From Candidatus Omnitrophota bacterium (GTDB lineage: Bacteria; Omnitrophota; Gorgyraeia; JAFGHF01), in assembly GCA_016939375.1 (NCBI GenBank), contig JAFGHF010000024.1, forward strand, positions 9,828 to 73,827: 64,000 nt of DNA, read 5' to 3'. The position numbers were made by a program. Below, piece by piece: positions 12,001 to 18,000 of the stretch. Each line of letters opens with the position of its first letter. The first letter of the stretch is position 1.

Positions 12001-15000
12001 ATTTTATCGTGCACAAAGGAAAGATCGGCGAGATCTATAATCTGGCAGGCAAGAATGAGATGAAAAACTTAGACCTCACCCGTTTGATCTTAGATATTAT
12101 GAACCAATCCGAAAGCTTTATTAAGTTTGTAAAAGACCGCCCGGGGCATGACAGGCGTTATTCTTTGGATAACACCAAGTTGAAGAAACTAGGCTTTATC
12201 AGTCAGCATGATTTTACTAAAGCCCTGCAGGATACGGTCGAGTGGTACCGCAATAACCGCAAATGGTGGAAGGCGCTTAAGTCGTAAGTTGTAAGTGATA
12301 AGTCATAAGATGAAAATTTTGATCACAGGTTCAAACGGGATGCTGGGAAAGGCTCTTTCCCGACAGCTACTAAATAAACACGAAATAATCGGTCTGGATA
12401 ATGGCAAGACCCAAGATTTGGGGGCTAAGGCCCGGAAATTTATCCACTGTGACATTACTGATAGGGAAAAAACAATCTCGGAGATCGTTTCTAACAGGCC
12501 GGATGTTATTATCCACGCCGCCGCCTATGCTGATGTAGACGGTTGTGAAAGAAACGCAGGGCTTGCCCAAAAAGTCAATGCCCAGGGGACTGAAAATGTG
12601 GCCTTGGCGGCAAAAGATTGCGGTAGCTTTTTGTGCTATATCAGTACAGATTTTGTGTTCGACGGCAATAAAGATAAAGGCTATGCAGAAGAAGACAAAC
12701 CGAACCCTATAAATATATACGGCCGGTCAAAATTAGAGGGCGAAAAACGCGTTCAGTCAGAATTGGAAAAGTTTGCTATTATCCGCTCTAGCTGGCTTTT
12801 TGGCCCGGGCGGGAAGAACTTTGTAGACACCTTCTTACAAAAAGCACAAGGTAAGAAAAAGATAGAAGTTGTCGACGACCAATTTGGCTCGCCTACTTAT
12901 ACAAAAGATCTGGCGCTGGGCATCGATAAGTTGATGGTTTTGGGCGATAGCTCAAAGGGTATCTACCATATCACTAATTCTGGGACTTGTTCGTGGTTTG
13001 AGTTTGCCGTAACTATTAAAGCAATGGCTGCTTTAGATGTTGAGGTATTGCCAGTCTCCTCAGAACAATATGATAGCCCTACTAAACGGCCCAAGATGTC
13101 TGTATTGGAAAACAAACGATTCTGTAAAAGCACAGGGATAACATTGCGCCACTGGAAAGAGGCGTTAAAGGAGCACTTAGATGAACGAGAGAACTTTAGC
13201 TGATAAAATTGCAAACAAGAAAGCAAGGGTAGGGATAATCGGCCTTGGTTACGTGGGTTTGCCTTTAGCCGTGACTTTTGCCAAAGGGGGCTTTCCCACA
13301 TACGGTTTCGACATCAACAAAGACAGGCTTAAACGCGTTAAAAAAGGGGAATCTTACATCTTGGATGTGGCTGTAAAAGAGTTGAAACAGGTCATAGGCA
13401 GCAGGAAGCTAAGGGTTGCCGATGACTTTAGCGAGATCAAAAAGCTGGATGTGATCATCATTTGCGTGCCCACCCCCTTAAAGGAAAAGAGCGAGCCCGA
13501 TGTCTCCTATATTGTCTCGGCAGTAGAAAATATCAAAAGATTTATGAAAAAGGGACAACTTGTGGTCCTGGAAAGCACGACATATCCGGGGACTACCGAA
13601 GAAATAATTTTACCGATGCTTGAATCCGCGGGCTTCAAAGAAGGGGAAGATTTTTATCTTGCTTTCTCTCCTGAGAGGGTAGACCCTTCTAACGTCAAAT
13701 ATAAGACTGAAAATACCCCCAAGGTGATCGGAGGTATTTCTCCGCAGTCGACAAATATATCTAAACTTTTGTACAGCAAAGTCATTAAAAAAGTGGTCCC
13801 TGCTTCATCGGCAAAAGTGGCGGAGATGTCTAAGCTTTTGGAGAATACCTTTAGGATCGTCAATATCGCCTTGGTAAACGAAATAATGTTGATGTGTGAT
13901 AAGTTAGGAGTCGATGTATGGGAGGTCATCGATGTGGCCAAGACCAAGCCCTATGGTTTTATGCCTTTTTACCCCGGCCCGGGAGTGGGTGGCCACTGCA
14001 TACCGGTGGACCCTATTTATCTTTCCTGGAAGGCCAAAGGCTATGGTTTTGAGGCCCGTTTTATCGAGTGGGCCTCTTATATAAACTCACATATGCCGCA
14101 TTATGTAGTAGAAAGGATAACCCGGGCGCTTAACGAATATAAGAAGCCCTTGAAAGGCAGCAAGATCTTGGTCGTAGGCGTCGCTTATAAAAAGGATGTC
14201 AAGGACCTACGCGAGTCTCCCGCTTTAGAGATCATCAAGATTTTACAGAATGAGCAGGCAAGGGTGTCATATTACGACCCCTATCTGCCTTATTTAAACA
14301 TAGATAACATCGACTTAAAAAATGTCAAATTTAACCGTGTGAATTTCAGTGATACAGATTGTGTGGTCGTAGTCACGGACCATTCCAATGTAGACTATGA
14401 ATTTATTTTGAGGTATTCTCCATTGATAATCGATACGCGCAATGTATTTAAAAGCTGCAAGGGCAGAAAAGATAAGGTGGTCAAGCTATGAGCCCCGTTA
14501 GAACCTTATATGCTTTCGGGGTAGTTTATCAAACAAAAAAGTCAGAAAATATAGGAGGTCTAACGGGGTGAGCGTATACTTAGTAACCGGTGGCGCTGGG
14601 TTTATCGGCTCTAATATTTGCCAAGAGCTTGTCAAAAGGGGAGAAACGGTCAAGGTAATCGATAACTTTGTCGCCGGCAAAAGAGAAAACCTTGCTTCCT
14701 TTATCGATAAGATCGAATTGGTGGAAGGCGACATCAGGGATTTGGGCCTTTTAAGCGAGATCACCAAAGGGGTGGATTATATCCTTCATCAAGCGGCGTT
14801 GCGTTCAGTGCCTAAATCCGTAGGCGATCCGCTTTCTTATGACGAAGTCAATGTCCACGGCACATTAAACGTGCTTTTGGCAGCCAGAGAAGCCAGGGTC
14901 AAAAGAGTGGTTTTTGCCTCTTCTAGCTCGATATACGGAGAGGCCCAAGTGTTTCCGGAAAAAGAAACACACCTGCCTGCGCCGGTCTCGCCTTATGCCG

Positions 15001-18000
15001 CATCAAAAATAGCAGGTGAGCATTATTGCCATGTCTTTAGTAAAGTCTATGGGCTGGAGACCGTTTCTTTGCGTTATTTTAATGTCTTTGGCCCCAGGCA
15101 GAGCCTGGAGAGCCAATATGCAGTAGTGGTGCCCAGGTTTATCATCAATATGCTTGATGAGAAGCCAGCGCCGATACACGGCGACGGTAAACAATCGCGC
15201 GATTTCACATATATCGACAATGTAGTCGAAGCAAATATTTTAGCAGCTACCTCTGATGGCGTTTCCGGAGAAGCATTCAACATAGCCTGCGGTAAGGACT
15301 ATAAGGTTTTGGATTTAGTCGCCCAGATCAATAAGATCTTGGGAAAAAAAGTGAAGCCAGAATTTACTCCCCCCCGGCCCGGAGATGTACCCCGGACTTT
15401 AGCCGATATCGGCAAAGCCAAGAAGATGCTCAAACTCGCAGTCAAGGTCGATTTTGAAAAGGGTTTGCAAAAATCTATTCAGTGGTTCAAAGAACACAAA
15501 GAGGAATATGAGCCCCGTTAGAGCCTTAAAATAGGTTTTGATGGGGTCTAAATGAGTTTTGGATGGATTAAAATATTTTAGAGAGCGCAGGAGGTTCTAA
15601 CGGGGTGAGTAGAAAAAAGAGGGTGCTTATAACCGGCGGAGCCGGTTTTTTAGGGTCGCATTTGTGCGCCAGGTTGATGAAAGAGGGCTACCAGGTGATT
15701 TGTATGGACAACCTGATCACAGGGGAGAAAGCAAATATCGCCCACCTGCTAAAAAATCCCAATTTCCAATTTATCCGCCACGATGTATCAAAATATATAG
15801 ATGTGGATGGACCGGTAGATTATATATTACATTTTGCCTCACCGGCTAGCCCGATAGATTACCAGCTCTATCCTATCCAGACTCTTAAAGTAGGTTCTTT
15901 AGGCACACACAATTCATTAGGGGTAGCTAGAGCGAAAAAAGCCAAGTTCTTGTTGGCCTCGACCTCAGAGATATATGGAGACCCTTTGGTAAACCCCCAG
16001 AAAGAGGATTATTGGGGTAATGTCAATTGCATCGGCCCGCGTGGAGTCTATGATGAAGCCAAGCGCTTTGCCGAGGCCTTGACTTTGGCATATCACAGGA
16101 CACATAAGATAGATACCAGGATAGCCAGAATATTCAATACCTATGGCGAAAAGATGCGCAAGGATGATGGCCGTGCCATACCCAATCTTATTACCCAGGC
16201 CTTGAAAAATAAGCCTTTGACAGTATATGGAAACGGAAAACAAACACGCAGTTTCTGCTATATAGATGATATGGTCGAAGGGATATATAGACTGATGCTT
16301 TCCGGTGTAAACGAGCCGGTCAATCTGGGCAATCCCAGCGAAAAGACTATACTCCAGCTGGCCAAGAAGATAATCAAGCTAAGTAAGAGCAGAAGCAAAA
16401 TAATACATAGGCCCTTGCCGGTAGATGACCCTAAAGTAAGATGCCCGGATATTAAAAAGGCAAAAAAGGAACTTGGCTGGTCGCCAAAAATAAGTTTAGA
16501 ACAAGGTTTAAAAAGTACGATTGAGTGGTTCAAAAGCACATCTTGATGTCTTGTAGAAAAATTTGGTCGGTATAGTTATATTAAAGGAGTTTACAAATGG
16601 CCAATAAGAAGATCAACGATATTCTTGTAAAAATAAGTCTGGTTTTGGCAAGTATCATTATTGTAATATTGATTTTAGAATGTTTTATGCGTATATTTTT
16701 CCCCCATAGCCAATATGCTATTGTCTGTGCCCCCTGGGGTTTTACCCATAAACCAAACTGCTCGATTACCTATTATGACGAGCTGGCTGTCTTTGGCAAA
16801 AAACCCCATCCGGTGCCTATTCACTACAACTCCAAAGGCTTAAGAGACTATGAATACGATTACGAAAAGCCCGAAGGGACCTTCAGGATATTGTTTTTGG
16901 GAGACTCCTGGGTCGAGGATATGGCCAGTTATCTGGACAATCTTTTTTCAAAAAGGCTGGAAAAGAAATTAAATTCATTTGACGTACCGGTAAAATTTGA
17001 AGTGATTAACGGCGGGCACTACGCCTTTGATAACGCACAAGAGCTGATGTTTTACCTTAAAGAAGGGATAAGGTATCATCCCGACATCGTTTTCGTTATG
17101 TATACCACGGATGTCCCCAGCCCAGAATATGCTGTTGTAAAGGATGGAAAGCTGAAGCTCAAATATCAAGAATTCACCCGATCGCAAAAGCTCTACAGAA
17201 ACCTGATCACTCTGGTCAGGTCTAATTCGCACTTAGGGAATTTTGTGCTGGACCGTTTGGGTTCCATAAAGTCCTTGGACCAACTTTTAAGACAAATCGG
17301 GTGGCGAGAAAAAAAGGCGGCCCTGGCAAAATTTCCCGAAGGCCATCCTCAGCTAGCAAATATAGAGGATCAAGAGTTGGCTGAACAATTGACAGTCAAA
17401 CAGGTTGTTGACGACGGCTCTAAAGGCAACTTCAGCTTTATAGATAAGCTTATATGGAAAAGATTTAAAGAAGCGGCGCAAGAGGATGAAGCCACTTTCG
17501 TTTTTATCCACAGCATACACTCGATTTATGAAAGAGACAGAAAATTTTTGGCTGAGGAAAACATCCCTTTTTTGTCTATAAAAATCAACAGCGAGCAGAC
17601 GAAAAAGATCAAAGAAGCAGACATAAAAAACGGCACCTACGATGAGACTTTGGACTCACACCGTTTTGGATACAAACAGCATCCGATAGTGGCTGAACAG
17701 ATACTGCAATTTTTGCTGGACAAAAAGCTTATTCCCTTTGCCGATGAGATAGCGGATATGCGAAAAAGGCCCAACAAGCAAGAAGCAAAGTCTAGCTTAT
17801 GAATATTTTAGGAATATCGGCATTTTATCATGATAGCGCTGCTTGTCTTGTACAGGACGGAAAGATAATCGCTGCGGCTCAAGAAGAACGTTTCACGCGC
17901 AAGAAGCATGACCATACCTTCCCCAAAAATGCCATAGAGTATTGCTTGCAAGAAGGCGCCGTTTCCGGCAAAGACTTGGATTTTGTCGCCTTTTATGATA

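Follow-up and report, generated by a model that had tools for sequence, protein, structure and literature searches.

Mycobacterial interspersed repetitive units (MIRUs) are 40–100 bp elements that lie in polycistronic operons and are known from empty and filled orthologous sites. They carry tetranucleotide direct repeats, imperfect terminal inverted repeats and small open reading frames (ORFs) that overlap the adjacent genes, as described in the passages on MIRUs of a review (Supply et al., 1997, via Delihas, 2011; PMC3184786). The subject here is a pair of hairpins in a 64,000-nt stretch of DNA from a Candidatus Omnitrophota bacterium (contig JAFGHF010000024.1, forward strand; hereafter the window, numbered from its first base), each of which covers the Shine-Dalgarno (SD) sequence and the GTG start codon of a gene for a short-chain dehydrogenase/reductase (SDR1 and SDR2). 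Each hairpin is very probably a copy of a non-autonomous element of the MITE (miniature inverted-repeat transposable element) type, with termini CCCCGTTAGA and TCTAACGGGG, and the two genes would very probably be kept expressed through coupling by the hairpin together with a relay ORF.

The first-pass annotation, made from the sequence of the window, had placed the arms, the CCTT and AGGAGG motifs, the stop codons and the GTG starts of both copies correctly. The exact 10-mer CCCCGTTAGA/TCTAACGGGG occurs four times in the 64 kb (+, −, +, −), as against about 0.1 expected, and its one-mismatch versions occur only twice more, both unpaired. Three features had been missed: the repeat is longer (TATGAGCCCCGTTAGA[A/G]CCTTA and TCTAACGGGGTGAG); TGAG directly abuts both ends of both segments (TGAG-CCCCGTTAGA ... 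TCTAACGGGG-TGAG); and an ATG at 14488 opens a 27-codon ORF that ends at a TGA overlapping the GTG.

The orthologous loci are informative on the origin of the segments. Four related Omnitrophota contigs (L122, L124, L125 and L126; L-numbers are labels of fetched contigs or loci carrying relatives or family copies) share the order rmlB–rmlD–ugd–SDR1–SDR2, and their SDR1 genes are 78–81% identical to that of the window. All four have a 4-nt ATGA overlap instead of an element at the ugd/SDR1 junction, and L124 and L125 have an 8-nt overlap (ATGCGTAA) instead of an element at the SDR1/SDR2 junction. The empty junctions read ..GATAAGGTGGTTAAATT/ATGAGCGTTTAT.. and ..AAAAAAGAAT/ATGCGTAAAAAG.. (the slash marks the junction). 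They had been predicted beforehand by in-silico excision of the element and one TGAG from the window, which yields ..GATAAGGTGGTCAAGCT/ATGAGCGTATAC.. at junction 1, with the ugd TGA overlapping an ATG start, and ..AAAGAGGAAT/ATGAGTAGAAAAAAG.. at junction 2, with an ATG start 8 nt before the SDR1 stop; the excised window is colinear with the relatives. Since TGAG is duplicated at both sites and relatives have empty junctions, both hairpins are insertions into ATGAG. By this comparison, the two copies entered the TGAG of ATGAG (a start codon and two further bases) at the overlapping ugd/SDR1 and SDR1/SDR2 junctions, and the hairpins are neither an ancestral leader nor a local duplication. The last G of the element and the TG of the right-hand repeat form the new GTG start, and the left TGAG retains the old ATG and, in copy 1, the upstream stop.

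The surrounding genes, which all lie on the + strand, make up a polysaccharide-precursor operon (rmlA-like, rmlB-like, rmlD-like, ugd, SDR1, SDR2, an unknown ORF and a carbamoyltransferase gene). The parts that bear on the two insertions are as follows.

13181–14491, + strand: ugd (UDP-glucose/GDP-mannose dehydrogenase family; Pfam PF03721/PF00984/PF03720), upstream of copy 1
14474–14480, + strand: ancestral SDR1 SD sequence AAGGTGG, 7 nt 5′ of the old ATG (14488); GATAAGGTGG in the empty sites of L122, L124 and L125
14488–14571, + strand: relay mini-ORF of copy 1, 27 codons (MSPVRTLYAFGVVYQTKKSENIGGLTG, then stop), from the ancestral ATG (ATGA with ugd) through the whole hairpin to the TGA over the new GTG (GTGA)
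14489–14491, + strand: ugd stop TGA, within the left TGAG of copy 1; in orthologous loci it overlaps the SDR1 ATG as ATGA
14489–14492, + strand: left target-site duplication TGAG of copy 1; with A14488 the old ATG start; a single TGAG in empty orthologous sites
14493–14568, + strand: element copy 1, 76 nt, absent from L122, L124, L125 and L126
Inside copy 1, + strand: CCCCGTTAGA at 14493–14502, bulged A at 14503, anti-SD CCTT at 14504–14507, then the variable interior
Right end of copy 1, + strand: SD AGGAGG at 14553–14558, then TCTAACGGGG at 14559–14568, whose last G is the first base of the GTG at 14568–14570
14568–15521, + strand: SDR1 (NAD-dependent epimerase/dehydratase, VipB/TviC-like, by Pfam), with the insertion-made GTG start
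14569–14572, + strand: right target-site duplication TGAG of copy 1, which supplies the TG of the new GTG and, as TGA, terminates the relay mini-ORF
15500–15504, + strand: ancestral SD-like AGAGG of SDR2, 3 nt 5′ of the old ATG at 15508
15508–15534, + strand: mini-ORF of copy 2, 8 codons (MSPVRALK, then stop), from the ancestral ATG past the whole 5′ arm to the stop TAG at 15532–15534
15509–15512, + strand: left target-site duplication TGAG of copy 2; with A15508 the old start codon
15513–15605, + strand: element copy 2, 93 nt; L124 and L125 lack it and have an 8-nt overlap of SDR1 with SDR2 in its place
Left end of copy 2, + strand: CCCCGTTAGA at 15513–15522, holding the SDR1 stop TAG at 15519–15521 (frame CCC CGT TAG), then G15523 and CCTT at 15524–15527
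Right end of copy 2, + strand: AGGAGG at 15589–15594, extra T15595, then TCTAACGGGG at 15596–15605, whose last G is the first base of the GTG at 15605–15607
15605–16546, + strand: SDR2 (UDP-glucuronate decarboxylase-like SDR, by Pfam), with the insertion-made GTG; orthologues start ATG CGT AAA AAG
15606–15609, + strand: right target-site duplication TGAG of copy 2

The two copies share several of the features by which MITEs are recognized: 10 exact bp of terminal inverted repeat, a TGAG duplication on either side, presence/absence polymorphism with one target copy in the empty site at both junctions, and a small size (76 and 93 nt; 29–160 nt in the family) that leaves no capacity to encode a transposase. 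The AGGAGG carried by the element lies 9–10 nt 5′ of the new GTG. SDR1 orthologues start with ATG and have the N-termini MSVYLVTGGAGF; an Omnitrophica protein in NCBI (317 aa) matches the SDR1 protein of the window with 100% identity. The ancestral SD at 14474–14480 would now serve the relay mini-ORF only.

Further copies, sought with regular expressions allowing mismatches, were found in many phyla, with arms that pair as a terminal stem. A genome scan with the pattern CCCCGTTAGA-N45-75-TCTAACGGGG, using one genome per species, returned at least 120 stretches, about 30 of which are estimated to be chance matches. Those listed come from Patescibacteria, Planctomycetota, Omnitrophota, Desulfobacterota/'delta', Gammaproteobacteria, Nitrospirota and KSB1 (phylum labels as in the database records) and adjoin unrelated genes. 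The same termini bound more than 150 distinct elements of 65–100 nt, a range limited by the pattern, in at least seven phyla; most copies are intergenic after in-silico excision. Among the matches listed, the two flanks carry the same 4-mer as a direct repeat in 65 of 121 elements, as against 8.7 on average and 20 at most under shuffled pairing, and the flank consensus of these 121 is the symmetric R-TNNA-Y (T at −4 and +1 in 91 and 99 elements, A at −1 and +4 in 95 and 100). Flanks of this kind would be expected from a 4-bp staggered cut by a dimeric enzyme. The stem consists of the 10 fixed pairs and three more, which are Watson–Crick in 143, 134 and 126 of 151 elements and include all four pair types; RNAalifold returns a 14-pair stem with three covarying pairs. 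Past stem position 13 complementarity is random, and the interiors are unrelated among copies. These statistics include related copies, which are not fully independent of one another.

Size varies beyond the range of the pattern: units of 29–32 nt and of up to about 160 nt with matching flanks also occur. The minimal copies (L117, 18–46; L030, 2206–2237; L099, 4791–4820) consist of two 13-nt ends and a 2–6-nt loop, and still lie between identical 4-mers (CTAA, TTTA and TAAA). A 65-nt form (L015, L041, L048, L051, L065 and L069) recurs in Planctomycetota, Omnitrophota and Parcubacteria; its 14-bp terminal stem encloses two short GC-rich hairpins, often with TTTG or AAAG loops, whose sequences vary by copy. 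Two tandem elements share one 4-mer at L012 2942–3105 (..TCTAACGGGG-ctca-CCCCGTTAGA..), and a similar junction follows the first element at L082 7–223 (..TCTAACGGGG-tgag-CCCCGTTA..), where the second element lies 58 nt further on; the 24-bp palindrome at each of these junctions suggests insertion beside an existing copy. At L033 4971–5060 a complete tRNA-Thr(CGT) gene (4981–5052; ARAGORN) lies exactly between the termini, with unduplicated flanks (cttg and tgaa). The terminal stem would here extend the acceptor stem of the tRNA, and the locus is either a cargo-carrying element or two solo ends.

Several copies lie within coding sequence. Those at L031 1304–1368, L015 1508–1572, L017 2807–2886, L108 6219–6295 and L053 3442–3509 are inside long ORFs (875 + 127 codons in L031); element and duplication together are a multiple of 3, and the frame stays open, reading ..(D/N)PVR...SNG(V/A).. 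over 23–28 residues. Another group (L012 3026–3105 and 6121–6200; L058 6334–6425; L093 3651–3715; L098 6292–6356; L100 4338–4423) sits exactly at the cleavage/methylation motif of type IV pilin-like genes, again with element plus duplication a multiple of 3. In these copies ..ACG GGG and the repeated TTTA-C read ..L-T-G/F-T-L-I-E.., so that Gly(−1) and Phe(+1) are rebuilt and the element joins the cleaved leader; they probably contribute to the G-TTTA-C form of the flank consensus.

TTGA duplications (right flanks in L011, L015, L023, L080, L087 and L111) give GGGG-TTGACA or GGGG-TTGACC, a match to the −35 promoter hexamer that may be a coincidence with the G-TNNA-C target consensus. The idea that TAAA/TTTA duplications mark stop codons was rejected (3 of 24, against 4.5% in the background); only TGAA-type sites are tied to gene boundaries. 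Near-identical 94-nt copies in the metagenome-assembled genome DX4.bin27 were withdrawn as evidence of transposition because they share flanks inside inverted repeats of about 320 bp. These repeats (L010 2046–2369 and 4832–5155; 89–95% complementary) surround a 686-aa Big_5 (bacterial Ig-like) ORF and recur on other contigs of the bin (L008 and L045); the repeat unit could be an invertible or mobile surface-protein cassette. Viral contigs of IMG/VR gave two matches only and no sign of a phage vehicle. A full-text literature search for both 10-mers returned primers and oligonucleotides only (a match in a report on a '77-bp inverted repeat' of the Porphyromonas capsule was an engineered bulge oligonucleotide, unrelated), and the literature on MITEs in these phyla or on start codons yielded no description that fits the CCCCGTTAGA family.

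A sublineage that carries its own SD is concentrated on start codons. A metagenome scan requiring GGAGG just inside the right terminus yielded 30 stretches, in 26 of which the element lies on (A/G)TGA(A/G), once ATGGA, in sense orientation and with the same 4-mer repeated after it; in those 26, the last G and TG form GTG, which opens an ORF of 63–389 codons. In at least 10 stretches the TGA of the left repeat is the stop of an upstream ORF, as at the ATGA junction of copy 1, and in three that stop is a TAG inside the left terminus, read CCC CGT TAG as in copy 2. Contig L132 has two copies, about 93% identical, each at the start of a different gene. Of 59 duplicated sites among the matches listed for the unbiased genome set, 14 overlap a start codon, compared with 2.3% of background sites with the same 4-mers. 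The left arm of the sublineage is CCTCT or CCTTT, never CCTCC, so that the SD is present on the sense strand only and GGAGG pairs through G·U wobbles. In predicted folds the G of GTG is paired in 23 of 23 SD-bearing copies, and the SD is at least 60% paired in 21 of 23 (mean −37 kcal/mol).

Insertion within ATGAR leaves the old SD and ATG in place to the left of the element. The frame from the old ATG reads ATG-ARC-CCC-GTT-AGA.. (M-N/S-P-V-R..), and no stop is possible across the left terminus; its later fate depends on element length modulo 3. Among 36 start-codon copies, this relay frame ends at the TGA that overlaps the start as GTGA in 10 (window copy 1 included), ends at a TAA inside the right terminus (TC-TAA-CGGGG), 7 nt before GTG, in another 10, and fuses in frame with the gene in four. 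The frame is stop-free through the interior in 16 of 23 SD-bearing copies, as against 8 and 4 for the other frames; in 2000 shuffles of the interior it was open in 4.7 on average and in 11 at most. An open frame so far above chance argues that translation through the 5′ arm matters, and as the interiors of the relay peptides are unrelated, the act of translation is what seems preserved.

The stems described in the first-pass annotation are present in the minimum-free-energy fold of both copies (copy 1, −29.9 kcal/mol, z −3.0; copy 2, −39.5 kcal/mol, z −6.2) and survive longer flanking context. The proposed occlusion of the SD and start codon likewise appears in both the minimum-free-energy and the centroid structures, and the upstream stop is at the foot of the 5′ arm in copy 1 and within it in copy 2, as had been noted. 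A search of 13000–17000 against Rfam 15 at E ≤ 1 gave no match; a known structured RNA family (riboswitch, leader or ribozyme) was rejected on this ground and because the interiors are unrelated among copies. A terminator and promoter scan found neither at either hairpin. The stems are followed by TGAGCGTA and TGAGTAGA, without a U tract, and an intrinsic terminator or attenuator, taken as a GC-rich hairpin with a U tract, was rejected for both. The hairpins are explained away as a regulatory-RNA candidate.

A mechanism can be proposed by which the genes would stay expressed. In the mRNA, the paired termini (about −30 to −40 kcal/mol) would bury the new SD and GTG and exclude free 30S subunits. 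The 5′ arm would be melted by ribosomes that end the upstream gene at the foot of the arm or within it, and also by ribosomes that initiate at the old SD and ATG and read the mini-ORF M-S-P-V-R-.. into the element. In copy 1, these relay ribosomes would terminate on the TGA that overlaps the GTG, leading to re-initiation. Insertion would in this way turn coupling by a 4–8-nt overlap into coupling by a hairpin and a relay ORF. Translational coupling, which the first-pass annotation had proposed, is thus plausible, with support from the comparison of copies, in a modified form, in which the device is delivered by a mobile element and the displaced old start would be a part of it.

Several points weigh against this reading as a whole. 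Coupling is predicted, and so are the occlusion of the SD in vivo and the use of the old ATG. The window has just two copies, and the mini-ORF of copy 2 has just 8 codons, even though these take it past the whole 5′ arm. The signal at the RNA level is weak: in the 36 start-codon copies G·U outnumbers A·C by 32 to 15 at positions 11–16, the sense RNA is more stable than the antisense by 2.2 kcal/mol on average (25 of 36, p = 0.026), and part of this sense-strand signal may go back to a single master copy. Survivorship, instead of targeting, could account for the enrichment on start codons, and the search patterns fix the 10-nt termini and the size range, so that the family statistics are conditional on both. 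Every fetched locus, about 1 Mb in all, was searched for full-length elements (termini with at most two mismatches, 600–4000 bp apart, with matching YNNR flanks), and no autonomous element or transposase with CCCCGTTAGA/TCTAACGGGG termini was found. Parentage in the IS1380 family was considered and rejected: the ends of ISEcp1, IS1678, a Lactobacillus plantarum IS1380 and an ISKpn23-like element, obtained via ISEcp1 beside blaCTX-M-15 and by tblastn on plasmids, share just the leading CC with the family (n = 4; CCTAGATTCTACG, CCTGAATTATTCA, CCTGAATAATTCA and CC(C)ACATTCCCC). Of these four elements two have clear 5-bp duplications and two none that can be assigned, and no IS1380-type transposase was found beside any family copy.

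Five alternatives were weighed against a mobile element whose hairpin and relay ORF couple the genes. The one that survives best, although unlikely, is that the elements are neutral passengers, that their hairpin serves mRNA processing or stability (as an RNase III site or a barrier to 3′-exonucleases) and not coupling, and that the genes are translated through breathing of the stem or ribosome standby. The stems are indeed long and stable (15–21 bp at the base) and intercistronic, most generic members of the family are merely intergenic, and published REP, ERIC and Correia-type MITE/REP elements behave in this way (Delihas, 2011; PMC3184786). Neutrality, however, leaves it unexplained that nearly all copies of the SD-bearing sublineage lie on start codons in sense orientation and that the frame from the old ATG is kept open through the element, and a structure of −30 to −40 kcal/mol over the SD and start should, from established work on structured ribosome-binding sites (RBSs), block independent initiation. 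An effect of the stems on RNase III processing or mRNA stability may exist.

A second alternative concerns the manner of movement and appears rather improbable. The element would move as a single-stranded DNA hairpin through the action of an HUH-type or tyrosine enzyme, as do REP/RAYT, IS200/IS605-derived PATEs or attC sites, with no DDE transposase, and the flanking 4-mers would be recognition or cleavage sites and not the duplication left by a staggered cut. Stem positions 11–13 covary with all four pair types and free sequence, which looks like recognition of structure; minimal hairpin copies of 29–32 nt exist; no transposase was found; and the ends contain GTTAGA and TCTAAC, the hexamers of classical attC R boxes. 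The flank repeats, however, are direct, variable (TTTA, TAAA, TGAA, TTGA, TGAG and others) and conform to a symmetric R-TNNA-Y, and the 4-mer is single in empty sites, all of which marks a 4-bp staggered cut; no duplication is made by IS200/IS605 and REP elements. A REP/REPIN–RAYT or IS200/IS605-derived palindrome was rejected on the same features of the flanks and because there is no fixed, guide-recognized tetranucleotide (GTAG/TTAC). An integron attC site is an imperfect palindrome of 57–141 nt behind a cassette ORF, with R″ (RYYYAAC) as its 5′ end and R′ (GTTRRRY) as its 3′ end. In the family the order of the hexamers is the opposite (GTTAGA ... TCTAAC), and in the window copies the seventh positions misfit R/Y; an attC site was rejected.

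The interpretation favoured by the first-pass annotation, a gene-specific coupling hairpin that sequesters the SD, was duplicated with the paralogous SDR genes and has been kept by compensatory change, is now very unlikely. The hairpin is real, and so are the burial of the SD and GTG and the location of the upstream stop; the copies share their ends and differ in a structure-preserving manner, and this geometry recurs in 23 related copies. What fails is the idea that the device evolved for these genes or arose by local duplication: orthologous operons lack the segments at both junctions and have direct overlaps, TGAG is duplicated at both sites, the same termini occur at more than 150 unrelated places in many phyla, complementarity of the arms is the terminal inverted repeat of a mobile family, and SDR1 and SDR2 have no other nucleotide similarity around their starts. 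The supposed covariation is an indel and a G·U wobble (G in copy 2 opposite the inserted T, against a bulged A in copy 1) instead of a Watson–Crick exchange. The coupling would be a by-product or an adaptation of a mobile element, not a duplicated gene-specific device.

It is scarcely credible that the mini-ORFs encode functional small peptides (M-S/N-P-V-R-...-G-G-L-T-G): frames are open in many copies and N- and C-terminal residues recur, but the residues that recur come from translation of the termini, the interiors show no relation in sequence or length, the frame of copy 2 stops after 8 codons, and the same frame is used for in-frame insertions in unrelated proteins. That the four 10-mers are recombinase sites that invert or excise SDR1, which does lie between perfect inverted 10-mers (14559–14568 and 15513–15522) 944 nt apart, can practically be dismissed, with no recombinase gene nearby, relatives that keep SDR1 in place and orientation without the repeats, and repeats that elsewhere form units of 65–100 nt (the size allowed by the pattern) and not gene flanks.

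On the reading as insertions of a mobile element, the GTG starts and the intergenic gaps of 76–83 nt in the annotation are products of a transposon (inserts of 76 and 93 nt), and a regulatory-RNA or riboswitch label would be wrong. The data point to a family of very small hairpin transposons that share their 10-bp ends across at least seven phyla, most of them uncultivated, and that persist in compact genomes by landing where the ends of the element repair the signal it breaks, be it a start codon (G + TG), a reading frame (..PVR...SNGV..) or a prepilin site (..TG/FT..). For the study of ribosome re-initiation across a stable stem, some 25 natural versions of a single design (old SD and ATG, relay ORF, hairpin, new SD, GTG) are available in the SD-bearing sublineage. 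A bolder proposal is put forward tentatively, with the balance of judgement somewhat against it: an undescribed superfamily of many phyla would include a 'start-codon cassette' sublineage that prefers ATGA(A/G), brings its own SD, rebuilds GTG and has been selected for obligatory coupling. If this is true, the ends of the cassette make a ribosome from the displaced ATG terminate at most 7 nt from the new start or continue in frame, the element imposes an obligatory and possibly tunable coupling on its target genes as a selected property and not as a neutral survivor, and the same ends also rebuild the Gly–Phe prepilin cleavage site on landing there.

Practically all gene-like ORFs of at least 150 aa are on the + strand over the full 64 kb of the window, and many junctions overlap by 4 or 8 nt; in a compact co-directional cluster of this kind, an element can only persist at gene boundaries. 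Just 3′ of SDR2 and before the carbamoyltransferase gene (17799–19616), a 401-aa ORF (16597–17802) has no Pfam match at E ≤ 0.001. Two other palindromes in the window are unrelated to the CCCCGTTAGA family: a perfect loopless one of 14 + 14 nt at 58841–58868 (AACACGCGGTCGAT/ATCGACCGCGTGTT), and a perfect 13-bp hairpin with a 4-nt loop at 33576–33605, near the end of an ORF at 33086–33619.

In classical translational coupling, as from the MS2 coat cistron to the lysis and replicase cistrons and at many operon junctions, a hairpin that sequesters the SD is opened by the upstream ribosome. The hairpins described here are alike in having the SD and start in the 3′ strand and an upstream ORF that ends at or in the 5′ strand; they differ in that the predicted structure would be delivered ready-made by a transposable element, together with a relay mini-ORF from the displaced start. 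Among mobile elements, the IS1380 family makes 4–5-bp duplications and has termini starting with CC (ISfinder tables), and piggyBac has the target TTAA and a 13-bp terminus CCCTAGAAAGATA; the likeness to the present family consists in the 4–5-bp duplication and CC ends, and TTAA fits TNNA. Rickettsia palindromic elements (RPE) are reportedly 105–146 bp long, confined to Rickettsia and tolerated in frame inside genes; the in-frame family copies in L031, L015, L017, L108 and L053 behave alike, whereas the two window copies are not in-frame insertions.

Chunjie (Geobacter), Correia/CREE (Neisseria) and ERIC elements resemble the family in being small and non-coding, in having both terminal inverted repeats and direct repeats, and in forming a stable RNA hairpin, and Chunjie also sits in an operon without breaking it. 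Neisseria REP2, which with MIRUs and RPEs is among the nearest published analogues, and Borrelia inverted repeats (IRs) lie immediately upstream of genes and provide them with a promoter, an RBS and an ATG. These MITEs differ in their termini and in their duplication (TA in Correia and ERIC, 9 bp in Chunjie), and none is described as landing on a start codon, rebuilding it from its last base and the duplication, and keeping a relay ORF. In behaviour, as far as the review cited at the outset describes them, MIRUs come nearest. Window copy 1 acts alike: it is intercistronic, and its relay ORF overlaps both neighbours (ATGA with ugd, GTGA with SDR1); in copy 2 there is only the overlap at the start. 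The parallel suggests that intercistronic elements with a relay ORF are a recurrent solution, not a mycobacterial curiosity. MIRUs differ in their unrelated GC-rich sequence, frequent tandem arrangement (variable-number tandem repeats, VNTRs) and restriction to Mycobacterium, and conserved CCCCGTTAGA termini, a built-in SD with a regenerated GTG and spread across phyla are not reported for them in that account. Sharing no sequence with the known systems as far as can be told, the family is set apart by its fixed CCCCGTTAGA ends, its TNNA duplication, its occurrence over a very wide phylogenetic range and the rebuilding, in one sublineage, of the start codon on which the element lands.

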